Virus record (IMG/VR): IMGVR_UViG_2602041909_000007
Reading direction: 5' to 3' (one strand)
Source of the DNA: a virus
Lineage: Duplodnaviria > Heunggongvirae > Uroviricota > Caudoviricetes
DNA: 36,618 bases
In this document: positions 2,565 to 35,226 of the stretch, piece by piece
Position numbering within the stretch: position 1 is the first letter of the stretch
How the letters are laid out: each line of letters opens with the position of its first letter
Notes under the pieces: model-generated
What the model was told of the DNA's origin: nothing
The model's input: the letters and a program-made list of their open reading frames with translations, nothing else
Databases searched by the model: none
Translations under genes and position numbers: made by a program

Positions 2565-4262
2565 TCAGGCGATAAGGTCACAGTATTTTTCGCGCAGGCT
2601 CGTAGCCTGTTGGGCGTCTGCAGCAAGTTCGCTGCTGTTTGTTGGTGCGCCGGTGTTGCTGTGGGTGTGGTTTGCAGTGTGTGTGGCCAGCAACTGAACC
2701 AGATCCAGAATATCAATCAACAACGTCAGCAGATTAAGTCCGGATTTTTCCCGTGAGTCACCGCGACCAATAAATACTGTCGGGGCTGTAAACTCCAGAC
2801 CACCGTCCGCTCGGCATGTTCTGCGACCTCCCACGTTTTCAGTAAGGTCGTGTTCAATCGTGGATGTCGCCCCTTTGAGTTTAGTCAGCAAATCCTGCGC
2901 TACCATCTGGATATGCTCACTGGCTGCGATCGCGTAATGACCGGTAGTAAGGTGCTCTATTTGTCCTGCCATTAGCTTGCTGGTTCCCAGAACGCTGGTT
3001 ATATCGTTTGCCTGTACTGTGGTTGTTCTGGTTGTTGTTGTGCGTTCCTCCTGATCGCTGTTAATGGTTCGCCGGGCTGAATGTTCTCTGATTTGCTGGT
3101 CGGTTTCTCTGTGCCAGCTTCCGTCAGCCGTGACGCGCTGAAACACTTCTGCGCGCTGTTGCTGCAGCTGTTCGCCGGGCTTTACATCAGGCAGGTTATG
3201 GCCAGCGGGTAAGATTTGCCTGATAACGGGTTTGTCCGGACGTCCTTCAATGTTGGATATTTCCACGATGGTGCCTGCCGGTGGGTAGGCAAAACATCCC
3301 GCCTCACTGCCAGCCATGGGGACGGGGAGCGGTACTGCCGGGTAAACGGGCGTGTCGCTTTTATCGTTGCCGTTCTCATCAAGCAACTGCACATCGACGG
3401 CGTAGCGTGGGCGGAAACTGTCGGCCACATCGCCCAGGGTAGTTGGCTCCGTTGGCGCAATGACGCGCGCCAGCCGGGTATGTAGCGTACCGCTGGCCAG
3501 TTCCGGGAACTGTGTTTCCATTTGTCTGCGTAATGGTGATTTGGAAACAGGGTTACCCGTGGCGGTAAGGCGCTCCCATGTCAGGGTCATTTTCTCGTTG
3601 TTGAGGGCTACACGGGTAATGCGCCCGGCCGGTAGGTTCACGCCCGGTCGCACAGTTTCCATAAACATGATGTCGATGCTGTTTCCGCCGCTTTGCCCGA
3701 GTGTGTACTGTTGCGGAATATCCGGCATTGTAATACTGGCAAATCGTGAATCAGCTGCGCTTCCCACAAATACAGAACCGTCCGGCATAGGGTGCCAGAC
3801 GTAATCGCTGATACTGAATGCTCGCCCCAGTTGGCTGAGCAGTTGTGCTCCGCTGCCGCTGTGGGTGATGTAGGGAGTTGGTATACTGGCATAATCCGCA
3901 TCCGGAGTGATAAAAACGATACCGCTTTGTCGCCCCAGATTATCGAGTACCCCCCGCAACGTCGGGTGTTGCATGGAGCAAGGGAAATCAAAATCCAGCA
4001 CAGCAGCCGCTTCACGAATAAAAAGGCGACGTGAGCCATTTTCAGCAGGTTGATCGCGCTCAATGTAGCCGGAGAAATAGCGCCATGCTTCACCGTCACG
4101 GCCGAGATCAATTTGTACCATTGCGCCGGCAAGGCTGTGTTCGGGTGACAGATTGTTAACAGAAATGAAGCCACGACCGGCAGCATTCAGGGTAAGAACA
4201 AGGTTTATATCGGCAATTTCCACCCGTTCGCCATTAATAATACAGCGTTGTATTAATTTCAT
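2565..4262 (-). CDS. Putative baseplate central spike/hub protein (gpV/gpD class, extended, 565 aa)
   Basis: Last gene of tail operon; N-terminus (IINGERVEIADINLVLTLNAAGRGF) resembles OB-fold start of P2 gpV/gpD-type proteins as I recall them; C-terminal HTANHTHS (HxH) resembles metal-binding spike tip. Assignment from memory only. Confidence 0.4.
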   Translation of the reverse strand: MKLIQRCIINGERVEIADINLVLTLNAAGRGFISVNNLSPEHSLAGAMVQIDLGRDGEAWRYFSGYIERDQPAENGSRRLFIREAAAVLDFDFPCSMQHPTLRGVLDNLGRQSGIVFITPDADYASIPTPYITHSGSGAQLLSQLGRAFSISDYVWHPMPDGSVFVGSAADSRFASITMPDIPQQYTLGQSGGNSIDIMFMETVRPGVNLPAGRITRVALNNEKMTLTWERLTATGNPVSKSPLRRQMETQFPELASGTLHTRLARVIAPTEPTTLGDVADSFRPRYAVDVQLLDENGNDKSDTPVYPAVPLPVPMAGSEAGCFAYPPAGTIVEISNIEGRPDKPVIRQILPAGHNLPDVKPGEQLQQQRAEVFQRVTADGSWHRETDQQIREHSARRTINSDQEERTTTTRTTTVQANDITSVLGTSKLMAGQIEHLTTGHYAIAASEHIQMVAQDLLTKLKGATSTIEHDLTENVGGRRTCRADGGLEFTAPTVFIGRGDSREKSGLNLLTLLIDILDLVQLLATHTANHTHSNTGAPTNSSELAADAQQATSLREKYCDLIA

Positions 4263-6670: not shown

Positions 6671-7528
6671 TTAAGCAGCAGATAAAACCGCAAACTGCAG
6701 TACTGCCCGAGCTACTGTCAGTGGCTCATTGGTTTGATATGCTGGTACAAATAAGCCCCTGTTAACTGTTACCGGCTCGCTCATCAGACGTCCGGTTTGT
6801 AATTGTATGTTGTTAATGGTTATCGGTTCGTGGATGGTGCGCCCTGACTGAACAAATTTTCTATTAATTGTTAAAGGCCCCCTTGTCTGTTCCCCGGACT
6901 GAAGCAGTACTCTGCTGATTTGCAAAGCGGGCTTTGGTGTTTCCGGTGGGAGGGCAGGTTTTTCCTGAGGAGCCATTGCCTCAGCTATCAACATTCGTAC
7001 AAATCTGGCATTAACAATCTCAAGACCCGCTGCATCATTTGGTGGTGTTGGAGTGGTTGGCGCTCCGGAAAACGACGGGCTTTCCAGAGGAGCCTTGTTA
7101 TTTAATTCAGAAAAAAAATCTACCTGCCAGCTTTGTGGCGGAGTAGTAATATGAGCGATTTGTGGCAGTCCGCTAAAAATGATGGCGAAATTCCGGATGA
7201 TAGTTTCTCCTGTGTGTTTATGTCGAACAGGACCACTTATAACTCCGCACAATGTGTTACTGGCTTGATGAACCAGGCAAATCCAGTCGTAGTTGAAATT
7301 TTCGTTATCAGCAACAATGGCACTACACACAATGCTGTTTTGATCCAGTTTTCCATAATGTAGGTTATTTACCCTGTGCGTGATTTTTTCAGGAGGAATA
7401 ATCGTATCATCTCTGGAAGGCTCTCTCTCCATCAGTGCAAAAACAATAGCGTCAGGGCGTGCCGGTAAATTACTGGCGGTGCATTCAGCAACCCATTTCT
7501 CAAATGCTTTCGTCAACAGTGCGCTCAT
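6671..7528 (-). CDS. Second tail-fiber-like protein: paralog of fiber N-terminal (baseplate attachment) domain plus C-terminal tandem repeats (285 aa)
   Basis: N-terminal ~150 aa align with N-terminus of the 566-aa fiber (shared E.W.A, PARPD..VF, F.Y.WI.L, IRNF, WQVDF); C-terminus has ~14-aa tandem repeats (LQSGEQTRGPLTIN / VQSGRTIHEPITIN / LQTGRLMSEPVTVN). Confidence 0.55.
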   Translation of the reverse strand: MSALLTKAFEKWVAECTASNLPARPDAIVFALMEREPSRDDTIIPPEKITHRVNNLHYGKLDQNSIVCSAIVADNENFNYDWICLVHQASNTLCGVISGPVRHKHTGETIIRNFAIIFSGLPQIAHITTPPQSWQVDFFSELNNKAPLESPSFSGAPTTPTPPNDAAGLEIVNARFVRMLIAEAMAPQEKPALPPETPKPALQISRVLLQSGEQTRGPLTINRKFVQSGRTIHEPITINNIQLQTGRLMSEPVTVNRGLFVPAYQTNEPLTVARAVLQFAVLSAA

Positions 7529-8088: not shown

Positions 8089-9789
8089 TTAAACACTCGT
8101 CACGTTATACCAGGTGCCGTTAATCAGTTTCTGAAGCGGTCGGTAATACACGCCGCCGATGTTATCTGCCGAATTACTTCCGGTTTCCTGCACATTAATA
8201 CCAGATAATCCATGGCCTGAAGGTGAGCGAAATGTCCAGGATATCTGGTTACCTCCCGGGTTGTAATACATTTCGGAACCATAACGCACATCCTGCACGC
8301 CGCCTGTTTTGGTCTGGTAACGGGCATCAAAGTTTCCGTAGTCTGACGGTGTTACCCGCCCGGTAACGTTTACAGGTTTATTGCTCTGAATGCTGCCACT
8401 CTGAAAACGCAACACATGCACGCTATTGGCATAAACATCCAGCAGGCCATCACCATTCTGTTTCAGGCCGGTATCGTTATCCCCGAAAGCAATTGAGTTT
8501 CCGCCCAGCGCGTTCTGAACGCCGATACCCAGCGCACCATTCACCTGAGAGCCGCCACCAACAGACACTTTATGCGACATGGATATTTCACCCGTCCGCA
8601 GATTAATAGTGAACGGACGCAGGGGACCAATATCGCCATTTTCGCCCTGATTTTCCCGGGTGGGAATAAGATGCAGGCACTCTTCAGAGCGACGAAAAAT
8701 CAGGCCAAAAGCTTCGTTGAAAATCCTCAGTGCATTAACACCACGGACTTTCAGCTCCCCGGTCATGGTGTCGCCGTCGCGCTCAACAGCGTCTTTTGCT
8801 TTATCCATTGCAGCTTTTACTGCCTTTGATGTGGCGGCGCGGTCTTCTGCGTCGCTGTCGGTGGAGTTGCTGTACTGCGCAAAGCCTTTCTCCTTCAGTG
8901 TTGCATCCGGATGATGGCGGGATTTTTCGTGCTCTGCCAGTGCATTGCTCTGTTCCTCGTCGGGTGTCTCCGGGCGCAGGTCCTGTGGGCCGTCTCCTGT
9001 CATTTTTGCAAGTGGCGCGACAAAGTGTCGGAAGCCGTTACCGTCTGTATAAGACGCATGTTCCTGGCGGGCGCAGAACGTAAAAACGGTATTCCATTCG
9101 CCGGTAACAAATCCCTGCCAGCTTGCATCAATCCAGAGGGTATCCCCGACCGCAGCCGGCAGGCTGTAAGGTTTGCGCAGACTGACGCGCAGACCTCCCA
9201 CATAACCCACGCCGGCGGCAACAGTAGCGGTACCATCCTGATAGCTGACCTGAAAACCATCCCCCAGAAAAGCGGCTTCACCGTAGTGATCAAACGCCAG
9301 CAGCCGGCGGGCCTCATCCATTCCTGCAAGGCGCGCAGTGAAATCAATCTGCCAGACATCGGCGCTGACATCGATATGCATTGCTGCGGCCGCGCCGTCA
9401 AACTCCATGGAAAATGTGCGGATCAGGTTGTTTCCCTGCACGCCGTTCGCTGTTTTAATTTTTTGCTGACGAGGTGTGTGTGCAATCATGCAGAGCACGC
9501 CGCTTTCTTCGTTCAGCAGACCGATCCAGTTGTATTCGAAGTCGCCGACTGTCGTGTCCAGAATGATGGAAAACGCGGTCGCGTTCGGCGACAGGAGGCC
9601 GTACTGGGTGACCGGCGCACGATACTGAATCATGGATTCATCAGGGAGTATCTCATCGCGGGGGATCTCTGCGGATTCATCCTGTCCCGGAATATATCCA
9701 AAAACAAATGTATCCGGGCGCGCAGGTTTTCCACTGATGAGCTGATTCGCACACCAGTGTTCGTACTGTTCAGTAATAATTGTGCTCAT
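8089..9789 (-). CDS. Tail fiber protein (566 aa) with P2 gpH/T4 gp37-like C-terminal receptor-binding region
   Basis: Position between gpI-like and Tfa; contains phage tail fibre repeat-like segment (KAAMDKAKDAVERDGDTMTGEL) and Gly-rich C-terminal region; N-terminal domain shared with 6671..7528 product. Confidence 0.85.
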   Translation of the reverse strand: MSTIITEQYEHWCANQLISGKPARPDTFVFGYIPGQDESAEIPRDEILPDESMIQYRAPVTQYGLLSPNATAFSIILDTTVGDFEYNWIGLLNEESGVLCMIAHTPRQQKIKTANGVQGNNLIRTFSMEFDGAAAAMHIDVSADVWQIDFTARLAGMDEARRLLAFDHYGEAAFLGDGFQVSYQDGTATVAAGVGYVGGLRVSLRKPYSLPAAVGDTLWIDASWQGFVTGEWNTVFTFCARQEHASYTDGNGFRHFVAPLAKMTGDGPQDLRPETPDEEQSNALAEHEKSRHHPDATLKEKGFAQYSNSTDSDAEDRAATSKAVKAAMDKAKDAVERDGDTMTGELKVRGVNALRIFNEAFGLIFRRSEECLHLIPTRENQGENGDIGPLRPFTINLRTGEISMSHKVSVGGGSQVNGALGIGVQNALGGNSIAFGDNDTGLKQNGDGLLDVYANSVHVLRFQSGSIQSNKPVNVTGRVTPSDYGNFDARYQTKTGGVQDVRYGSEMYYNPGGNQISWTFRSPSGHGLSGINVQETGSNSADNIGGVYYRPLQKLINGTWYNVTSV

Positions 9790-20489: not shown

Positions 20490-21380
20490 TTACACCAGGT
20501 TAAAAGTTTCGCCACCGGCCGGATTGTTGCCCGGCAGCTTCGTGGCGTCCTTGCTGAGTTCAGCAAATGCGGTTTCCATACTGGTAACCTTCTCCGCGAT
20601 GGCGTTCACTGTGGAGAACAGCTTTTCGCCCTGCTCGGTGGTCAGCGTGAAGGTTTTGTCGTCCTTGTTGTTCTGTTCTGCGTTGTCCTGCCCCTGATCG
20701 CCGGTGCTGCCTTCCGGCTTGTTATCACTGGTATCTTTCGGGGCATCCTTCGCGCTGAACTGCGCGACGTTTTCTTCCAGTTTGTCCAGGCGTTCGCCGG
20801 TTTTGTTGATAGCGTCCATCAACTGGCCGAACTGTTTTTCGTTCATATCGTTTTCCTGTTTGTTGCGTCCCACGGAGAAAAGGCCGGAAAAGAAACTGCG
20901 TTTGGCCTGCTCGTCGTCAGACTGCAGCGTGAAATTCAGTTCTTCTGCATTCCCCATGTGAATGGAATCTCCCTGCGAAAATTGCAGGCGGGTGGTGTTG
21001 ATGCTGGCCGGTGTGTCAGTCACAGCGATACCGGATACAAAGAATTTGCCTGTTCCCAGGTAGTTTTCCTTTACCTCTATGGAGGTGAAAAGTTTTTGTC
21101 CAGCCTCGTTGGCTTCGGTCAGAAAGCGGTTGGGTATCAGGCGGGCTTTCAGCTGCACTTTATCACCGACTTTTTCCGCCTTCAGTGCATCAACAAGACC
21201 ATAGTTATTGGTGAAAGCACGCCAGCCGGCGCTGGCATGAAACGGCCAGAGCATGGCGGTGTGTTCGTCCGGGTTATAAACCTCGGCGGCATCCGTCAGC
21301 CACTTTGGATCAATTTCCCGACCGTCGATGGTGGGGCCTGAAGTGGCTACGACCACCCAGTCTGTTTTCAGTTTCGACAT
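20490..21380 (-). CDS. O: Capsid scaffolding protein (P2 gpO-like, 296 aa)
   Basis: First gene of minus-strand late operon divergent from terminase; acidic, coiled-coil-rich C-terminal half; conserved GIAVTDTPAS-type segment as in gpO. Confidence 0.8.
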   Translation of the reverse strand: MSKLKTDWVVVATSGPTIDGREIDPKWLTDAAEVYNPDEHTAMLWPFHASAGWRAFTNNYGLVDALKAEKVGDKVQLKARLIPNRFLTEANEAGQKLFTSIEVKENYLGTGKFFVSGIAVTDTPASINTTRLQFSQGDSIHMGNAEELNFTLQSDDEQAKRSFFSGLFSVGRNKQENDMNEKQFGQLMDAINKTGERLDKLEENVAQFSAKDAPKDTSDNKPEGSTGDQGQDNAEQNNKDDKTFTLTTEQGEKLFSTVNAIAEKVTSMETAFAELSKDATKLPGNNPAGGETFNLV

Positions 21381-21574
21381 CTGAATTAACCCGCTGATAA
21401 AAATTAAACTGGCGTTATTTAACGGAGAAATAAAAATGTCGTCATCTGATTAATTTCCGGTACTTTCGGATATGCGTATATATCCGAAAAATACCGAAAA
21501 GCGATATTCGTTTTTAAAAAAGCCTTTGCTGAAAATGCATAAATTAAAATTGCATCAGCAGGTGAGGTTTATTT
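21381..21574. promoter_or_regulatory. Divergent late promoter region between scaffold (O) and terminase (P) with a large inverted repeat
   Basis: AT-rich 194-bp intergenic region; near-perfect palindrome TTTCGGATAT-gcgtat-ATATCCGAAA at ~21454-21479 (extended ~21449-21485). Confidence 0.5.
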
Positions 21575-23362
21575 ATGGCGTATTCTGATGAGGTGATTGC
21601 TGCTGCAAAATCGCTCTATCTGAAAAGGCACACACCAAAAGAAATACAAAAGAAACTCGGACTGAACAGCCCGCGAATTGTTTATTACTGGGCGACAAAG
21701 TTTGAGTGGTACACGCAGCTCAATACGGAAGGTGTGGAGGATGTTATCGCCCGGCGTCTCGCTGTACTGGCGGAGCGTGACCATAAAACGCCGGAAGAAC
21801 ACGATGAACTCGACCGCCTGATTGGTCATCACGTCAAACTAATGTCGGTCAGAAACAAGCACACGGAACGAATGGCTGAGATTGCGCGAATGGGAGTGGA
21901 CATCCCCCAGCCGGGCCGTTATGGAAAAGAAGAACGCGGAGAAAAAGGTGCAGGTAAGAAAGAGCGTCCCCGCAAAACTAATGACGTTTCCGGACTGACT
22001 GCTGAAAGTTTTGAGCCGTTTACGAAGAAGTTGTTTGCTTATCAGTTGCGCCTGCGTGAAAACAAATTCCGCCGTGTACGCAACCTGCTTAAATCCCGTC
22101 AGATTGGGGCGACGTATTACTTCGCGTTTGAGGCGTTTGAAGATGCGGTATTAACCGGCGACACACAGATATTTTTATCGGCATCAAAACGTCAGGCCGA
22201 AGTGTTCCGTACTTATATTGTAAAAATTGCACAAACAGAGTTTGGCATTCCCATTAAAGGCAATCCGGTTAAGTTAAGTAATTTGGCTGAACTGTATTTT
22301 CTGGCGACCAACAGCAACACGGCACAGTCAAACAGCGGCCACCTGTACATTGACGAATACCTGTGGATCCCCGGTTTTCGCCGTCTCAATGAAGTGGCGT
22401 CAGGGATGGCCACCCATAAACACTGGCGCATTACCTATTTCTCCACGCCGTCATCCAAAACACACCAGGGTTATCCGTTCTGGTCTGGCGATGAATGGCG
22501 CAAAGGTGATCCGAAACGAAAAGGGGTTGAGTTTCCGTCCTTTGATGAACTGCGTGATGGCGGGCGCGAATGCCCGGACGGTCAGTGGCGCTATGTGGTT
22601 ACGCTGGAAGATGCCATTGCCGGCGGCTTTAACCTTGCTGACATCAACGAGCTGCGCGAGCGATACAACGAAACAGCGTTCAATATGCTGTTTATGTGTG
22701 TGTTTGTGGATGACAAAGAGAGCGTCTTTAAATTCGATGACCTCGTGCGCTGTGGCGTTGATGTCAGTACGTGGGAGGATTTTCACCCGGAAGAACCCAT
22801 GCCATTTGGTAACCGTGAGGTGTGGGGTGGCTTTGACCCTGCGCGCTCCGGCGATAACGCCACGTTTGTGGTGCTGGCACCGCCGCTGGTTTCGGCAGAA
22901 CGATTCCGCGTGCTGGAAAAACACCACTGGCGCAGTATGTCATTCCAGTTTATGGCAGAGCGTATCCGCAGCATTAAGGCGCGCTATAACATGACATTTA
23001 TCGGCATTGACGTCACCGGTCTTGGCTACGGTGTCTTTGAGCTGGTTCAGGGATTTGCCCGCCGTGAAACAGTGGCCATTCATTACAGCGTTGAATCCAA
23101 AAACCGCCTGGTGATGAAGATGCTGGATCTGATTTACGCCAACCGTATTGAGTGGGATGAAGAAGCCACAGATATTCCGGCATCGTTCCTGGCCATTCGT
23201 CAGGAGTCCACTAACAGTGGCAATAAAGTCACTTTCACCGCCGAACGTAGCGAAAAAACCGGGCACGCAGACATCTTCTTTGCCATAGCTCATGCCGCAA
23301 GTAATGAACCCCTGAACTATAAGCACAAGCGCAAATCAACATGGATCCTGTCAGATGAGTAA
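21575..23362 (+). CDS. P: Terminase large (ATPase) subunit (P2 gpP-like, 595 aa)
   Basis: Size matches P2 gpP (590 aa); divergent from O; followed by portal with overlapping stop/start. Confidence 0.9.
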   Translation: MAYSDEVIAAAKSLYLKRHTPKEIQKKLGLNSPRIVYYWATKFEWYTQLNTEGVEDVIARRLAVLAERDHKTPEEHDELDRLIGHHVKLMSVRNKHTERMAEIARMGVDIPQPGRYGKEERGEKGAGKKERPRKTNDVSGLTAESFEPFTKKLFAYQLRLRENKFRRVRNLLKSRQIGATYYFAFEAFEDAVLTGDTQIFLSASKRQAEVFRTYIVKIAQTEFGIPIKGNPVKLSNLAELYFLATNSNTAQSNSGHLYIDEYLWIPGFRRLNEVASGMATHKHWRITYFSTPSSKTHQGYPFWSGDEWRKGDPKRKGVEFPSFDELRDGGRECPDGQWRYVVTLEDAIAGGFNLADINELRERYNETAFNMLFMCVFVDDKESVFKFDDLVRCGVDVSTWEDFHPEEPMPFGNREVWGGFDPARSGDNATFVVLAPPLVSAERFRVLEKHHWRSMSFQFMAERIRSIKARYNMTFIGIDVTGLGYGVFELVQGFARRETVAIHYSVESKNRLVMKMLDLIYANRIEWDEEATDIPASFLAIRQESTNSGNKVTFTAERSEKTGHADIFFAIAHAASNEPLNYKHKRKSTWILSDE

Positions 23363-24389
23363 AAAGAAAAAATCCCCCGTGCTACACGATGGCGTGGCAA
23401 AAAAAACAGCCAGCAAAATGACGTTTATTGAATTTGGTGACCCGGAACCAGTCGCTGCATGGGGCTGTTATTACGGCTCGCTCTGGGATGGCTATAACGG
23501 CTGGTACACGCCGCCCATTGAGCGCATGGATCTCGCTATGTTGGCCAATATCGCACCGTATCACGGCGCGGTATTGCGTGCGCGCGTCAATATGATCATG
23601 CAGGGTTTTCGGGGGGGCGGTGGTATGACACACGCCGCCATGGCGGCAGCGGTGACCAATCTGCTGATATTCGGGGATATGGGTCTGCTTAAAGTGCGCA
23701 ATGGCTTCGGTCTGGTAGTGCGCCTGCACACACTGCCGTCGCTGTACCTGCGGCGTAACAACGAGGGTGGCACGGTGATTGTGCAGGCGGCACTGGAAGA
23801 TCTCGTTTACCCGCCAGGCGAAGTGGTGTTCGTGGCCATTTATGACCCGCAACAGCAGGTTTACGGTGTACCGGATTATATTCACGGGATGGAATCCGCC
23901 ATGCTGAATGTGGATGCCACCCGCTTTCGCCGCAAGTATTACAAGAACGGCGCACATCTTGGTTATATCCTGTATTCCACTGACCCGGACATGGATCCCG
24001 AGCTCGAGGCGGAATTCCGTAAAAAGATAGAGGCGTCAAAAGGGGCGGGCAATTTTAAATCCATGTTTATCAATATACCGGGCGGAGACAAAGAAGGCGT
24101 TAAGGTGATCCCTATCGGGGATTCAGGTACAAAAGATGAGTTCCTGAATATAAAAACCATCAGTGCCCAGGATCAGCTCGTCGCGCACCGTTTCCCACCC
24201 GGACTTGCCGGCATCATTCCCGCAAATACGGCCGGGCTTGGTGACCCACTGAAATCCCGCGAGGCATATTACAGGGATGAGGTTATCCCGATGCGCCGCC
24301 TGATTATGGAGGGGATCAACAGCGACCCGGATATCAGACGACTGGGGGAGGTGAAATTTATTCTTGATTTTGATGAACCCATGGAGTGA
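23355..24389 (+). CDS. Q: Portal vertex protein (P2 gpQ-like, 344 aa)
   Basis: Exactly the length of P2 gpQ (344 aa); P-then-Q transcription order as in P2. Confidence 0.9.
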   Translation: MSKKKKSPVLHDGVAKKTASKMTFIEFGDPEPVAAWGCYYGSLWDGYNGWYTPPIERMDLAMLANIAPYHGAVLRARVNMIMQGFRGGGGMTHAAMAAAVTNLLIFGDMGLLKVRNGFGLVVRLHTLPSLYLRRNNEGGTVIVQAALEDLVYPPGEVVFVAIYDPQQQVYGVPDYIHGMESAMLNVDATRFRRKYYKNGAHLGYILYSTDPDMDPELEAEFRKKIEASKGAGNFKSMFINIPGGDKEGVKVIPIGDSGTKDEFLNIKTISAQDQLVAHRFPPGLAGIIPANTAGLGDPLKSREAYYRDEVIPMRRLIMEGINSDPDIRRLGEVKFILDFDEPME

Positions 24390-24454: not shown

Positions 24455-24712
24455 ATGCGCAGACAGAAAGCGCGATGTCATTGCTGCGGTGCACATGCAG
24501 TGATTGAGAAAACAGCCTGGAAAACCGATCAGTTTGCTGATGTGTATTACCGTTGCACCCGTCTCGAGTGCGGACATACCTGGGTGATGAATCTGACCTA
24601 CTCGCACACACTGGTGCCCAGCGGGCTGGAGAATGGTGTGTTAAAGCTGTTGATTGAGCGGATGCGTCCGGAAGAAAAACAAATGGCTCTGGAGTTGTTG
24701 CAGGCCGGATAG
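24455..24712 (+). CDS. ogr: Ogr/Delta-family zinc-finger late-gene transcription activator (85 aa)
   Basis: Start at ATG 24455 with GGAGG SD; CHCCGAH…(22 aa)…CTRLECGH matches C-x2-C…C-x4-C zinc finger of P2 Ogr (CPLCQHAAH…CQNVNCSATF). Confidence 0.7.
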   Translation: MRRQKARCHCCGAHAVIEKTAWKTDQFADVYYRCTRLECGHTWVMNLTYSHTLVPSGLENGVLKLLIERMRPEEKQMALELLQAG

Positions 24713-24732: not shown

Positions 24733-24785
24733 AACCCGGAACGGGCGCACAAAGAATTTGCGCACCCGTTCCGGGTTTTCTTATT
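24733..24785 (+). terminator. Strong rho-independent terminator after ogr
   Basis: Long imperfect palindrome CCCGGAACGGGCGC-acaaagaatt-TGCGCACCCGTTCCGGG followed by TTTTCTTATT. Confidence 0.7.
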
Positions 24786-25140
24786 CAATGGCAGACAACT
24801 GATAATTTGTGTCTTCCTGCAGGCTGGTTAAAGAAATATTATCCAGTGCAGCCAGAATAACGTGCTGTGTATATAATCCGGAACATTTCATTGCCCGGAC
24901 AATATCACCAACACTGTAATTTTCTTTTGTCGGGATATATCCACCACCCGGGCCGCGTGTGGCTTTTACCAGGCTACTTTCCCGTAAATATCTGAATATT
25001 TGCTCCAGATATGACAGTGAAACGGTTTCTTTGCTTAATTGCCGGAGTGAGATTGGCTTTCCGGTGTACTGTTTCACAAATTTAATCATTACCATAACTG
25101 CAACTGATGCACGCTGGCTTCCGGAATTATCTTTCATCAT
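24781..25140 (-). CDS. Rrf2-family transcriptional regulator (120 aa)
   Basis: [29 protein letters not shown] closely matches Rrf2/IscR wHTH signature ([29 protein letters not shown]); start set at ATGATG 25140 with SD; no Cys cluster. Confidence 0.8.
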   Translation of the reverse strand: [119 protein letters not shown]

Positions 25141-25151
25141 GATTACTTCCA

Positions 25152-25439
25152 TTAATGGCATAAATTGATGGGGCGGGTCAGTGAATAAAGAGGCAATACA
25201 TTCCATCCCTTAGAGCGCCAGCTGTCTGCAACATCTTTACTTCTTGTTATCGCCGGTATTCCAATAGGATTATTTGCGTGCATCCATGCCACTGGCTCTG
25301 CTTCCAGTGATGCAAGTGCGATTTCCAGTGCGATTAACATATTGTGATCGTCTTCATCAAGACCGAACGGGATGTCTTCGCGCCACGATTTAAACTCTGT
25401 GATTTTACGTTGTAACCATTCTTTGGTAATGGTGGACAT
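25152..25439 (-). CDS. Hypothetical protein (95 aa)
   Basis: ORF with AGGAG SD before ATG at 25439; Trp-rich C-terminal region; no confident family. Confidence 0.45.
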   Translation of the reverse strand: MSTITKEWLQRKITEFKSWREDIPFGLDEDDHNMLIALEIALASLEAEPVAWMHANNPIGIPAITRSKDVADSWRSKGWNVLPLYSLTRPINLCH

Positions 25440-25453
25440 AGTTACTCCTGTTT

Positions 25454-25768
25454 TCACTTCGGGAAAAACGCCTGAATATTCTTTTTCACCTGCTGCATAT
25501 GGGGGGCGCTGTCTGCTGCTGGTTGCGCCGGTTTTTCAGGCTGTACTGGTAGCGGTGGCATCCGTATTTCGTCTTCTGACCATTCTGCCAGCGAATACGC
25601 CAACGCGGGGGTGCGTTTTATAAGAGCCAGTCCAGCCAGAAAAGCCGCGCGTTGTGCGCGGCTGCGTTCGGAGGCTGGCAGGCTGTCGAGGTAACTGCAC
25701 GCCTCCCGTTCGCTCTTGACGACGGCGGGCTTCAGATAGAAACTTATCCGTCTGGTTGGTGTCGTCAT
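25454..25768 (-). CDS. parR: ParR-like centromere-binding adaptor (104 aa)
   Basis: Immediately downstream of parM homolog; LDSLPASERSRAQRAAFLAGLAL resembles R1 ParR (LDSIPQGERSRLNRAALTAGLAL); start at ATG 25768 with AGGAG SD. Confidence 0.7.
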   Translation of the reverse strand: MTTPTRRISFYLKPAVVKSEREACSYLDSLPASERSRAQRAAFLAGLALIKRTPALAYSLAEWSEDEIRMPPLPVQPEKPAQPAADSAPHMQQVKKNIQAFFPK

Positions 25769-25772
25769 TGAT

Positions 25773-26732
25773 TTACTCCTTGTCCATTGCGTACAGCCCA
25801 TTAACCAGAGCAAACTGTGGCACCCCGTCCGCGATGAAAGTCGCATTAACTCCGCAGGCTTCGCGGATAGCGGGTGCCACAATCTCCGCTCCTCCACCTA
25901 CAACCATCACCCGCCCGTAACCCGAAAAAACCGCCAGCGCGCGGATCACGCGTTGTTTCAGTGTTTCCTCCTTTTCACGAATAACTGCCATCAGGCTGGC
26001 GTAATGCGCGTCATTGTGGATGTGCTGGCGCAGCCAGGCTTCATCGTGGCGATGTTCGATAATGGTATTGGCGATGTGGTGACTGGTGCGCATACCGTTG
26101 GTGGCCATCACCGACAGCACGGCATCGGCCATCAGAGAAACGCCTACGTGTGGATCGCAAAACACCTGGCTGATACCTGCCAGTTGCCCCTGAACCTTTG
26201 CCACATCCAGCGTGGTTCCGCCCAAATCCACAATCAGCAGGGATTCAAACGGACTCATGTCAGCCAGTGCCTTAAAACCAGCCGGAATGGATTCAGGCAT
26301 AACCCGCACGTTACGGATAGTGAATGCCTCGCCGTTCTGGTACTCCACCGGGCGCATAACGTTCGCTTTTTTGCGGTTGATGTTGGCCATGTCCGGCTGT
26401 GCGTTTGTGTCGAAATACTCGCTCAGTGGCAGGGTAACAACCACATCCACTTCCTGTGGTGTGATGCCTGATTTGACCAGCGCGTGGTGAATGGCGATTA
26501 CATTCACATCGCTGTACTGGTATTGCGTGTCGGTCGTCTGGACAAAGCGATCGCTGACCGGATCAAAACCATAGCGCACGCCATCAAGCATGTAGTTCGC
26601 GGGCTGCGTGCCACCGAACGGCGCAGACCATTCCGACTTGAAGCTGTTCGGGCTGATGGCGTTGCGGCGTTCGCCGTTCTCAGTCCATGCCAGCTTGATG
26701 TTGGTGGAGCCGTCGTCGATACAAATTTTCAT
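25773..26732 (-). CDS. parM: ParM/StbA-family actin-like segregation ATPase (319 aa)
   Basis: Near-colinear similarity to plasmid R1 ParM as recalled: IDDGSTNIKL, ISPNSFK, YSDVNV.A.HHAL, VMPESIPAG, DLGGTTLD, GGGAE, LVNG.Y. Confidence 0.9.
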   Translation of the reverse strand: MKICIDDGSTNIKLAWTENGERRNAISPNSFKSEWSAPFGGTQPANYMLDGVRYGFDPVSDRFVQTTDTQYQYSDVNVIAIHHALVKSGITPQEVDVVVTLPLSEYFDTNAQPDMANINRKKANVMRPVEYQNGEAFTIRNVRVMPESIPAGFKALADMSPFESLLIVDLGGTTLDVAKVQGQLAGISQVFCDPHVGVSLMADAVLSVMATNGMRTSHHIANTIIEHRHDEAWLRQHIHNDAHYASLMAVIREKEETLKQRVIRALAVFSGYGRVMVVGGGAEIVAPAIREACGVNATFIADGVPQFALVNGLYAMDKE

Positions 26733-26876: not shown

Positions 26877-29631
26877 TTCTACTGGTCAGGCCACCCCGCA
26901 GCAGGTCTGCTTTGCGGCGGGCGCGTTCAGTTGTTTCACTGATTCTCTGTGCGTGCTCTGCGTCACGGATGGCGCGCAGCATGTCAGAAAGCACGGTAAC
27001 GGGGGTTTTCATGGTGTTCTGGTCCTGCTGAAGTGTGGATGCCAGACGTGCGGCGGCTTCGGGGTCTGATGCCCCCAGCTGTGCCAGATAGCTGGCGACC
27101 GGGTTATGGCGGATCTCCGTGCTGCTTACGCCGTGATTACGGCTCAGGTGCTGCCAGAGCTGCGTGATTCGGCTGTCCGGGCGGGTATCCGGTTTGCGTA
27201 CAATTTCAAATCCCTGTGGTGCAATGATGCTGCCGTCAACGTACAGGCTGCCGCCCCGTAACAGGTGCTGCATCTGCTGTTCACCGATATGCAGGCCGAG
27301 AGATTCGGCAGATTCCCGCCATTCTTTAGCGAGTAATTCGTGGTTATCAGGCAAAGGCCGTGGCTGTTTGCGGCTCTGTGTCCAGTTCTGCATTTCATCA
27401 CTGCTGTTTTTTGCCTGCTTGTCACGCAGCGAACGCATCAGAGCCCGGCGTTCGTGCCGTTTCAGTGAGCGCATCCATTCGTTCACTTCAACGCCGTCAG
27501 GGAGCTGCGGCCACGGTGCTGGCCGTTCTTTCGGCTGTTCTGTCCCGTTGTTGTCCGTTTCCTGTACACGGGGACAGTTATTGCCACGAGTCCAAGGGGC
27601 GGCAGGGCCGCCCTGAAGGTCAAAACCATTTTCGCGGGCGCTGTCTTCCGCTTCCGGTTTACGTCTTACCAGCTTCCAGTTATCCGGATGTGTGCACACA
27701 CGGGAAGACTCCCCGATGAGTGGTGACCAGATCCCGTAAATCTGTACGCTCTGTTCGCCGTAATCGTTCAGCTCATCTGCGAGGTCGTAGGCGGTGCGAA
27801 TCAGGTAGTCTTTGCGTGGAACAAGTACGCCGCCCTGTTTTTCAATGTAGGAGGCAAAACACCCGGCATCAGCGGCAGCGAGCACTGCATCCATTGCGTC
27901 ATCCTTCAGCCGTTGCGGGCCTTCCGGGTTGCGTGCCATCTGGCTGGCAAGGCGGCGCAGTTCACGCCACACCTGACGGGAGGGGATGCCAAAGAACTGG
28001 AACTGGCGGACCCGGTGAAGGCGCGCCCAGCCGATGGCGCGCTCCACGCTCTCGGCCATTGATTTTCCGGTTTCGTGGTCAACGCGTGGCTTGCCCGTTT
28101 TCGGGTCGATACCATCCACGGCGCGGCTGTCCAGGTTCTTTCCGATGTAGGTGGCGATGTAGCTGGTTGGCGTGCCTTTTGAGCCGTCGACGTACTCCGC
28201 TTTAAAACGCGGAGTTATGTCATCGCCCAGCTCGTGGCGGTCTTCCTGAATGGCAATATCGCAGACGTGGGACACGATGGTTTCAATCTCGTCCGGATGT
28301 GCAAAGACCATCATATGCCAGTGCACAGTGCCGTCATGGTGAGGCTCCACCGTGCGGATGCCATACCAGCGAAGACCGTCGCGGTTCAGTTTTTTGCGGA
28401 CCGCCGCAAAAAACGTGTTAACCAGGTAATCGCTGGAGTCGCGCATGGTGGCCCCGTTCCATTTGGGATTCGGATGACCGTTCTCCGTTGTTGCGTGGTA
28501 TTTTGACGGGCAGGTGACAGTCAGAAACACCGCTCTGTCGCCACGGGCTTCGGCCAGAAGTTCCAGCCCCTTCATGGTGGCCATCATTTCTGCCTTACGG
28601 TGAACCGGGTTACTTACTCCCGCGTAATACACCGTCTCGAGATCAATCGTGAACCCGTCTTCATTTTCCAGCATGAAACTTTTCAGGAAATCGCGTGTTT
28701 TCTCGCGCTGTGCGCGAAACTCGCTTAATGCGTCCTGGCTCAGATAGGGCGATGTTTTTCTGGAAACCAGACAGGCGGCGCGGAGTTGTTCTTCTCTCCA
28801 CTCGCAACGTAACAGCCACAGTTTGCGTTTCCACCATTCCGCACAGGTCAGGCGAAGGACTGCGCCCGGCAGCAGCTCCGTGTCCGGTTCGTTCCTCCGG
28901 TCTTTATCTGTTGTCAGTGCGTCATAATGTGGAGGCATGATGTGCAGGTGTAACGCCATGCGGGCCAGCATCTGATACGTCTTCAGCGTTACATCCATGG
29001 TCAGTTCGCCATCGGTCGCGCCAAAGCCATCGCAGAGTTTTTCGAAGGTGCTGCTGAACATCGCCGCCGTCATGGTGGCCAGCGTCTGTATCTGGTGTTT
29101 GTTGAGCTGCGGCAGGTAAAGCAAATCGTCCAGGCGTTCGCGTCCGGCAAGGGAGCGATAACCCGGTGTCAGCCAGCGTCCGTCAGTGCGATCCAGACGT
29201 TCGAATATTTTGCGCAGGGTTCCGCGTGCATAGCGTTCCGCCTGCCAGCTCTTTTTGCCTTTCCGGCGATCGGCTTCCTGTTTTTTGCGCAGGAAGGAGA
29301 GGTGGCGAATAAGCGGATCGCGCAGATAGGACGGCAGCAGGCGCAGCGAGGCCATGGCTTCATCCACCGCGCCGCGTGCCTGTTTTCTGGCGTCTCCTGC
29401 CAGTGTGATGGTTTTGTCCTGTTTTTCCTGTGCATCCAGGCTTTTATTAATCAGGTTGCCCAGCGGCGTGGCGGAGAACGCCGCATCAGCCTTTTCCTGT
29501 CGGCGCTCGTTCTCTGCCCGGTAGGCATCCAGCCAGGAGGAAAGCGCGGATTCAGGTGCGGGGATCCCCGTTCCTTCACGCCCCACTGCGTGGCGCGGTT
29601 GTTGCCAGTCCCTGATGTACTCTGTCGTCAT
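26809..29631 (-). CDS. A: Replication initiation endonuclease (P2 gpA-like HUH rolling-circle initiator, 940 aa)
   Basis: HUH-type motif TVHWHMMVF and catalytic-Tyr region TSYIATYIGKNLD; position in early operon upstream of head genes as in P2; ~180 aa longer than P2 gpA. Confidence 0.8.
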   Translation of the reverse strand: MTTEYIRDWQQPRHAVGREGTGIPAPESALSSWLDAYRAENERRQEKADAAFSATPLGNLINKSLDAQEKQDKTITLAGDARKQARGAVDEAMASLRLLPSYLRDPLIRHLSFLRKKQEADRRKGKKSWQAERYARGTLRKIFERLDRTDGRWLTPGYRSLAGRERLDDLLYLPQLNKHQIQTLATMTAAMFSSTFEKLCDGFGATDGELTMDVTLKTYQMLARMALHLHIMPPHYDALTTDKDRRNEPDTELLPGAVLRLTCAEWWKRKLWLLRCEWREEQLRAACLVSRKTSPYLSQDALSEFRAQREKTRDFLKSFMLENEDGFTIDLETVYYAGVSNPVHRKAEMMATMKGLELLAEARGDRAVFLTVTCPSKYHATTENGHPNPKWNGATMRDSSDYLVNTFFAAVRKKLNRDGLRWYGIRTVEPHHDGTVHWHMMVFAHPDEIETIVSHVCDIAIQEDRHELGDDITPRFKAEYVDGSKGTPTSYIATYIGKNLDSRAVDGIDPKTGKPRVDHETGKSMAESVERAIGWARLHRVRQFQFFGIPSRQVWRELRRLASQMARNPEGPQRLKDDAMDAVLAAADAGCFASYIEKQGGVLVPRKDYLIRTAYDLADELNDYGEQSVQIYGIWSPLIGESSRVCTHPDNWKLVRRKPEAEDSARENGFDLQGGPAAPWTRGNNCPRVQETDNNGTEQPKERPAPWPQLPDGVEVNEWMRSLKRHERRALMRSLRDKQAKNSSDEMQNWTQSRKQPRPLPDNHELLAKEWRESAESLGLHIGEQQMQHLLRGGSLYVDGSIIAPQGFEIVRKPDTRPDSRITQLWQHLSRNHGVSSTEIRHNPVASYLAQLGASDPEAAARLASTLQQDQNTMKTPVTVLSDMLRAIRDAEHAQRISETTERARRKADLLRGGLTSRNKKQTETGFTNPVNEQKTRRDI

Positions 29632-31370: not shown

Positions 31371-31699
31371 TACATTTCCTTAACCTGGAAGGCCTGCACC
31401 ATTTGGTGCAGGCGGTACATGGTGCGAAAACGCGGGCGGGTGCGACTGGTGTCAGTTTCGCGTCCGTTAACGCGGTTCAGCCAGCCGTAGCCGTACCAGC
31501 GATTGGCAATCCATACTTCAACGACGTTGTCGTTGTGATGAAAAATCGCGTTGTGCTCATTCGTTGCGACGAGAACGCCTTCATTCAGTAGCTGCTGTAG
31601 CTCTGCATCCCATGAAGGGTTGAATTGGTAGACATAAAAGCCACTTGCGCTTTTCAGAATGTGACTCATCAGAGTCATGCGGTATTTCAGTTTCCCCAT
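31370..31699 (-). CDS. Hypothetical early protein (~110 aa)
   Basis: Start set at internal ATG 31699 (MGKLKY...) to avoid overlap with upstream gene. Confidence 0.4.
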   Translation of the reverse strand: MGKLKYRMTLMSHILKSASGFYVYQFNPSWDAELQQLLNEGVLVATNEHNAIFHHNDNVVEVWIANRWYGYGWLNRVNGRETDTSRTRPRFRTMYRLHQMVQAFQVKEM

Positions 31700-35169: not shown

Positions 35170-35226
35170 AAAGATAACCAAAAGGTTATCTTTGTGCGAG
35201 AGGTTAATACTCAAATGGTTATCTTG
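35170..35226. promoter_or_regulatory. Candidate repressor operator: perfect 10-bp inverted repeat plus third direct half-site at repressor start codon
   Basis: AAAGATAACC-aaaa-GGTTATCTTT at 35170-35193; GGTTATCTTG at 35217-35226 overlapping ATG of C-like gene; located in divergent cox/C intergenic region. Confidence 0.5.

Follow-up and report, generated by a model that had tools for sequence, protein, structure and literature searches.

A conserved palindrome as the probable core of a bidirectional activator site between the divergent late operons of an HP1/K139-type prophage of E. coli

The stretch of DNA analysed here (the window, 36,618 nucleotides) is an E. coli P2-like prophage of the HP1/K139 type, in which a perfect palindrome separates two divergently transcribed sets of late genes. 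This palindrome is almost certainly the shared upstream control site of both back-to-back late promoters and, judging from comparisons among related loci, would represent the core of a bidirectional activator site bound by a protein of the Ogr/Delta family, a reading to which we assign a probability of about 0.68. In P2-like phages, and in the satellites exploiting them, Ogr-type activators provide the classic late switch. The mechanism is this known late switch, and the present site is its sequence variant. The sequence of the palindrome, its conservation, its fixed geometry and its co-occurrence with one Ogr subfamily are direct observations, from which we infer the start sites, the binding of the Ogr-like protein and the mechanism of activation.

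The prophage is located between serS (1-1293) and the integrase gene (35611 onward), and its genes are arranged as in Vibrio phage K139 and Haemophilus phage HP1 rather than as in P2. The leftward late genes are, in order, those for the scaffold, major capsid, small terminase, head completion, tail completion, sheath, tube, endolysin-like, tape measure, baseplate and fibre proteins, with only small gaps between them and almost no intergenic space. The rightward late operon comprises the large terminase, the portal and the Ogr/Delta gene, after which a GC-rich hairpin is the likely terminator closing the operon (Table 1). The public record of K139 also presents one long operon running from scaffold to baseplate, and only two late promoters, which are divergent and located in the same gap.

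Table 1. Features of the late control region and its flanking genes (positions in the window).
Feature	Position	Strand	Remarks
gpO-type scaffold gene	20490-21380	-	First gene of the ~19-kb leftward late operon, which runs down to about 2565
Putative -10 TTAAAT, leftward late promoter	21417-21422	-	Predicted start ~21410
Putative -35 ATGACG, leftward late promoter	21440-21445	-	17 bp upstream of TTAAAT; conserved gtCAT block
Outer left half-site TTTCCGGTAC	21454-21463	.	One helical turn outside the inner left half-site
Inner dyad TTTCGGATAT-gcgtat-ATATCCGAAA	21464-21489	.	Core TTCGG-N14-CCGAA; centre 21476.5
Outer right half-site AATACCGAAA	21490-21499	.	10 bp outside the inner right half-site
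Possible third, degenerate right half-site GATATTCG	21503-21510	.	Another 10 bp out; weak evidence
Putative -10 GAAAAT, rightward late promoter	21531-21536	+	Predicted start ~21543
Large terminase gene	21575-23362	+	PHROG E 8e-100
Portal gene	23355-24389	+	PHROG E 3e-112
Ogr/Delta-family zinc-finger protein gene	24455-24712	+	85 aa; Pfam PF04606, phrog_603
GC-rich hairpin followed by TTTTCTT, after ogr (AACCCGGAACGGGCGC ... GCGCACCCGTTCCGGGTT TTTCTT)	24733-24779	.	Found by eye

Some further features of the prophage deserve a mention. A perfect hairpin (14540-14569; CTTAATAAGCCTtcctgcAGGCTTATTAAG as read on the transcribed strand) lies within the 64 bp that separate the endolysin-like gene from the tail gene next to it. 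Its stem measures 10 nt, and its loop of 10 nt closes further, to 6 nt; no clean T-run follows, and the hairpin may be an internal attenuator or an RNA-stability element of the late operon. A 285-aa ORF (6671-7528), which shares an N-terminal tail-fibre domain family of ~143 residues with the full-length fibre gene (8089-9789), may be a second fibre cassette or a remnant. On the other side, the region between ogr and the gpA replication gene (24781-26732) encodes an Rrf2-family regulator, a ParR-like plasmid-stability protein and a ParM/StbA actin-like partition ATPase. Such cargo is unusual in integrated P2-like prophages, and may point to a plasmid-like stage or to a module of plasmid origin.

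The palindrome itself consists of two perfectly inverted 10-bp arms around a 6-bp spacer. An earlier note on this DNA had given its sequence and the length of its arms correctly, but placed it at 21447-21486, a range that begins 17 bp early and misses the last 3 bp of the right arm. The same note extended the arms to about 16 bp with one mismatch, which does not hold, since the four flanking positions on each side are unpaired when read from the sequence (c63/a90, a62/a91, t61/t92 and g60/a93) and the spacer has 0/3 Watson-Crick pairs; the next-best pairings reach 9/10 matches with a 4- or 8-bp spacer. The palindrome does lie midway between the divergent genes, as had been described: from its centre, it is 96.5 bp to the ATG of the scaffold gene (21380, minus strand) and 98.5 bp to that of the terminase gene (21575), and the gap between the two genes measures 194 bp (21381-21574). 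The entire gap is quasi-symmetric about 21476.

Dinucleotide shuffling of the gap yielded a perfect 10-nt-arm repeat with a spacer of 0-10 in 25 of 3000 shuffles, and the whole window contains about nine distinct perfect 10-nt-arm inverted repeats, against 0.46 expected; the conservation described below is far stronger evidence for the palindrome than these statistics. The other perfect repeats are found at 35170-35193, 31392-31413, 28389-28414, 19383-19404, 1412-1441, 1479-1506 and 1560-1583, and include AAAGATAACCaaaaGGTTATCTTT upstream of the integrase gene, one repeat within the small-terminase gene, and three hairpins after serS near the prophage end.

The exact dyad occurs only once in the window, and no further copies were found in it: a search allowing two mismatches gave 16 matches, where 18.7 would be expected, and gene starts show no enrichment of single half-sites. 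The earlier note had proposed to look for the same half-site upstream of 18131 and 17060, where no copies are present, nor would they be expected, because there is no intergenic space at these points. Being single-copy, the dyad offers no regulon within this genome that could back the assignment, although, with no other real gaps in the late region, we do not hold the lack of copies against the model. The gap also lacks the TGT-N12-ACA site of P2, in agreement with that note; six matches to this pattern exist in the window, all of them outside the gap and fewer than chance predicts.

The comparison with relatives was based on 97 loci encoding terminase relatives, collected through the terminase protein and cited below, where needed, by their L numbers; nucleotide searches of the phage collection with the region itself, in near and distant modes, returned no match. 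The dyad was sought in the 260 bp upstream of the terminase gene, where random 260-mers match in 0.9% of trials. Allowing at most one mismatch, TTCGG-N14-CCGAA is present in 33 of the 33 loci with at least 63% terminase identity, and this conservation rules out a chance palindrome. Among unique sequences there are 15 central hexamers but only seven arm pairs, so that the arms are fixed and the central 6 bp are free, which is the footprint expected if a protein reads the arms and ignores the centre. Several relatives with 99% terminase identity have the terminase-side half of the gap replaced by unrelated sequence and retain the dyad, and their replaced flanks carry AATAAT at an unchanged offset. 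In some relatives with 99% terminase identity, including L028, L029, L031, L032 and others like them, a segment containing tandem TTACGGAACG repeats (gggatattacggaacgttacggaacgaaccggaaaa) has taken the place of the terminase leader, ~60-100 bp to the right of the dyad.

The dyad extends well beyond the closest relatives. It is found in Cronobacter phage ESSI-2 (GTTCGGATATaacgctTTTCCCGAAT), in Vibrio phage K139 (ATTTCGGATATaaccccATATCCGAAT, record positions 15487-15512) and in Haemophilus phage HP1 (record positions 13700-13725), and in distant dyad-bearing relatives scaffold identity drops to 33-39%. Absence of the palindrome from homologous intergenic regions, which the earlier note had named as grounds for rejecting its proposal, is thus not what we see: close and intermediate relatives and these three phages all have it. 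The same region is also present in 42 of 5426 complete E. coli genomes.

Near-identical arms in phages of very different hosts would be explained equally well by a host transcription factor conserved across the Gammaproteobacteria (Haemophilus, Vibrio, Enterobacterales), which would bind the dyad and tie late transcription to host physiology. The distribution of the pattern argues against such a factor. A scan of IMG/VR for the exact pattern gave 39 matching contigs, and in 37 of them the dyad is confined to the space between the terminase and scaffold homologs. In a much larger metagenome collection, nine of the 27 exact matches fall in the terminase/scaffold gap; the other 18 are close in number to a chance estimate that assumes the size of the collection, and nearly all have a GC content of 0.34-0.48, compared to 0.48-0.58 for the gap matches. 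Moreover, the dyad of other Vibrio/Aliivibrio prophages of the family, though located at the same point, is a different one (GTTTCTATAT-N5-ATATAGAAWC), which favours a phage-encoded factor over a host one, and we know of no E. coli operator matching the arms. A host factor is, in our view, unlikely. Changes of dyad at a constant position are also seen in other clades, which have, for example, the strong dyads CTTTTTAAAT-N5-ACTTAAAAAG, AATCGCGCTA-N6-TAGCGCGTTT or GTTTTTATAT-N5-ATATCAAAAC.

The conserved site is not limited to the inner dyad. At the outer left position, a TTC.G block of moderate information content recurs in relatives (L001 TTACGGATAG, L105 GGTTCGGAGG, HP1 TTTGGATATC), and on the right side a CCGAA block is kept 10 bp beyond the dyad (L053 tcagCCGAAt, L003 gtagCCGATa, K139 tcacCCGAAc). 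The possible third right half-site is conserved in the E. coli clade only, as GATATTCG or GATAATCG, and overlaps the weak -35 position of the terminase-side promoter. HP1 presents the fullest version of this array, TTTGGATATC TTCGGATAT agcacg TTATCCGCC TATATCCTAC GATATCCAAA, with five half-sites and a GGATAT core. The gap of L051 and L052 contains the same half-sites with the right one located 10 bp further out (TTCGGTTAAGT-N12-ACTTAACCGAA); there, the outer register takes the place of the inner right half-site, and the -10 keeps its distance to the left half-site. This arrangement is consistent with alternative registers in an array of half-sites phased by 10 bp.

The relation of the dyad to the promoters was studied in 17 non-redundant relatives anchored on the dyad centre, taking as a -10-like hexamer any with A at position 2, T at position 6 and at least 4/6 matches to TATAAT. 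On the terminase side, the distance between the centre and the start of such a hexamer is exactly 55 bp in 14 of the 17 relatives, 56 bp in one, and 45 bp in two, and the hexamers involved include GAGAAT, AATAAT, CATAAT and TACACT. On the scaffold side, ATGACG or ATGACA followed, after 17 bp, by TTAAAT at 55 bp is common to the E. coli and Edwardsiella clades, and the block ccgTTAAATa is kept in the window, L037, L050, L001 and L044, again with TTAAAT 55 bp from the centre; in other clades, NANNNT hexamers are found at 55 bp (six relatives), 56 bp (one) and 45 bp (two). The distance of 45 bp, exactly one helical turn less, applies to both sides in L104 and L131. Information content across the gap is highest at the dyad, the outer half-sites and the -10-like hexamers. 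In clades further out, symmetric hexamers are still found in L079 (at about 44 bp) and L095 (at 54.5 bp), and none surround the dyad in the Sphingomonas loci.

Placing the start sites by the conservation of the hexamers alone, the centre of the dyad would be at about -66.5 from both starts, and at about -56.5 in L104 and L131. A simple scan of 21300-21650 found no consensus sigma-70 promoter, and the -35 position on the terminase side is TTCGTT; the lack of a consensus is as expected for activator-dependent promoters. The leftward promoter, with its fairly good -35 (ATGACG/ATGACA), might not depend strictly on an activator.

The same starts bear on the 5' ends of the transcripts. The segments 21389-21408 and 21544-21563 form an imperfect inverted repeat of 20 nt with 75% complementarity, and both late mRNAs would open with the similar leaders TTTAATTTTTATCAGCGGGT and TTAAAATTGCATCAGCAGGT. 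The terminase leader of the E. coli clade has ~32 nt and includes a ribosome-binding site. In the Yersinia, Cronobacter and K139-like relatives L003, L058, L098 (ESSI-2), L084, L104 and L106, the -10 (CATAAT/TATGAT) is separated from the terminase ATG by 6-7 nt, a distance that implies a leaderless terminase mRNA.

This geometry also helps to weigh other functions for the palindrome. The dyad is unlikely to act as an RNA hairpin or terminator, since it lies upstream of both predicted start sites and no T-run accompanies it. It could instead serve as the operator of a repressor silencing both late promoters in the lysogen, be it the immunity repressor, Cox or the Rrf2-family protein (24781-25206), given that a palindrome between divergent promoters is also typical of operators and that this Rrf2-family winged-helix gene is just downstream of ogr. 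Such a role fits poorly, because the dyad lies upstream of both predicted -35 positions with no overlap with the core promoters, and because no Rrf2-named gene appears in the genome records of K139 and HP1 or in the fetched region of ESSI-2, all three of which have the dyad. There is, in addition, no consensus promoter to be repressed, and the arms of the dyad are constant, whereas immunity repressors would normally be expected to diverge with immunity type. We regard repression as quite improbable.

A third possibility is a packaging or replication element, for instance a recognition site for the terminase; the large terminase gene adjoins the gap, and a packaging role had been raised in the earlier note. 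The cos sites point elsewhere by homology, since the cosL of HP1 is at position 1 of its record, beside attP and int and far from the terminase/scaffold gap, and the cos of P2 is beyond gene Q. The fixed distance of the dyad to the -10-like hexamers on both sides is, furthermore, a transcriptional signature, and we find the packaging option unsupported and highly improbable.

The protein that most likely binds the dyad, as the association between loci suggests, is the Ogr/Delta zinc-finger protein encoded after the portal gene. Its assignment to the Ogr family, already made in the earlier note, is borne out by Pfam PF04606 (E 1.4e-12, 47.8 bits against a cut-off of 26.3), and the motif C-X2-C-X22-C-X4-C can be read directly from its sequence; translation probably begins with the ATG of 24455, which is preceded by the ribosome-binding site GGGAGGTGG. 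Searches against solved structures and NCBIfam gave no informative match, only a weak resemblance to the RPB9/TFIIS-type zinc ribbon, and a sequence search found no solved structure for the Ogr family. One Ogr subfamily (ECGHTF/WV.NL..SHTL.PS) follows the portal gene in every dyad-bearing locus reaching far enough downstream. Where a clade has another Ogr subfamily, a different dyad stands at the corresponding position; this association between subfamily and dyad type holds at the level of clades and is confounded by phylogeny. In K139 and ESSI-2, no regulator other than the Ogr-like gene is annotated after the portal, and it is also the only one found conserved across the dyad-bearing loci. 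Within the flanks fetched for the Sphingomonas and Aliivibrio loci, no Ogr-like ORF was found, despite their strong dyads.

HP1 has an unannotated Ogr-like ORF on the minus strand, just downstream of the portal gene (L142, NC_001697, 10447-10650), which tblastn recovers with K139 orf13 (E 3e-11); its first Cys-X2-Cys is in another frame, suggesting a frameshift or an old sequencing error. Following the first zinc knuckle, the subfamily has I-x-K-T, and HP1 and the L055/L084 clade have R-S there; the lineages with R-S tolerate TTTGG, TTAGG or TTAAG.

The closest parallel to this arrangement is found in P2 itself, whose late promoters pP and pO share an activator site for Ogr (or for the Delta protein of P4 or the B protein of 186). 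Its record has one "activator binding site; pO, pP promoters" (3057-3087); the P operon starts at 3016 and the O operon at 3127, which centres the site at -55/-56 in both directions. Both systems have weak core promoters, a phage-encoded C-X2-C-X22-C-X4-C activator, which is putative in the present case, and a single site of dyad symmetry for the two promoters, located where the large-terminase (P) and scaffold (O) genes diverge. The sites differ in sequence and spacing: here TTCGG-N14-CCGAA, with 9-10-bp arms of the type TTCGGATAT, a longer spacing and extra outer half-sites phased by 10 bp, and in P2 TGT-N12-ACA. They also differ in position, with a predicted centre at about -66.5 here and at -55/-56 in P2, and in the place of ogr, which ends the terminase-portal operon here and is beside int in P2. 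P2 Ogr is a protein of 72 aa, relative to which the protein encoded here has ~30 extra C-terminal residues. To our knowledge, TGT-N12-ACA is the sole Ogr-family site shown experimentally.

Sequence variants of this kind of site are known from other phages. The P2 late-promoter consensus TGT-N12-ACA is Ogr-dependent (PMC3931495), and the Ralstonia phages RSA1 and RSY1 have the late-promoter motif TGTTGT-N13-ACAACA at four late operons (PMC5694545). The Ralstonia motif and the present dyad are both lineage-specific variants of an Ogr-type dyad upstream of late operons; the former keeps the TGT/ACA core and recurs at four operons, whereas the latter has CGG/CCG and occurs once. K139 and HP1 share with the window the gene order, the dyad and the Ogr subfamily. 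The record of K139, by contrast, lists only the putative sigma-70 promoters P16 and P17 and leaves the dyad unannotated; in that of HP1, with its five half-sites, both the dyad and the Ogr-like ORF are unannotated. The putative -10 and -35 hexamers of P16 overlap or adjoin the dyad (L101, NC_003313, 15487-15519), and given the conserved -10-like hexamers 55 bp to either side, the annotated promoters of K139 are probably misplaced.

Taking these observations together, conservation, the fixed -10 distances, the co-occurrence with an Ogr subfamily and the P2 parallel all support the proposal of the earlier note that the palindrome may be a distinct activator site for the Ogr-like protein. The site would consist of TTCGG(A/T)TAT-type half-sites phased by 10 bp, an inner pair within the palindrome (21464-21489) and an outer pair flanking it (21454-21463 and 21490-21499). 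Once made, the Ogr/Delta protein (24455-24712) would bind this array as a symmetric dimer or higher oligomer, and the bound protein would recruit or activate RNA polymerase at two weak, symmetrically placed promoters. The rightward one, with its -10 GAAAAT (21531-21536), would drive terminase, portal and ogr, and the leftward one, with -35 ATGACG, 17 bp and -10 TTAAAT (21445-21417), the genes from scaffold to baseplate. With its centre at about -66.5 relative to either start, the dyad would be one helical turn beyond the P2 site (-55/-56), and the outer half-sites, near -48, would come close to the calculated place of the promoter-proximal half-site of P2.

A more specific version of this mechanism can be put forward only tentatively, and we judge it slightly more likely to fail than to hold. 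According to it, the Ogr subfamily of HP1, K139, ESSI-2 and the E. coli prophages would have an undescribed specificity and architecture, with a tetramer-like assembly on phased TTCGGATAT half-sites, that is, CGG-N14-CCG plus outer repeats 10 bp away, one helical turn beyond the P2 position, firing two polymerases in opposite directions. As part of the same proposal, the I-x-K-T residues may read the C of TTCGG.

The combination of this recognition sequence, the phased half-site array and the conserved +/-55-bp geometry seems undescribed for this lineage. The public records of K139, HP1, ESSI-2 and SI7 have no annotation of the dyad, a full-text literature search with both arm sequences gave only unrelated hairpin and primer matches, and searches of the literature on Ogr, K139 and HP1 turned up no description of the motif, although the K139 genome paper (PMC135448) may mention the repeat.

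As for its practical uses, the site could help to annotate the late control regions of related prophages, for which it is a signature, and to trace satellites or host genes with the same site. It could also be a basis for correcting public records, such as the Ogr-like gene missing from the HP1 annotation and the putative promoters of K139. The mechanism is an expected one, so that the finding is a refinement of known biology and leaves it standing. What it adds is a site conserved from Haemophilus through Vibrio to E. coli with a base-exact promoter geometry, and a putative second, sharply defined recognition sequence, which would provide a natural specificity pair for understanding how a small zinc finger reads DNA and contacts RNA polymerase.
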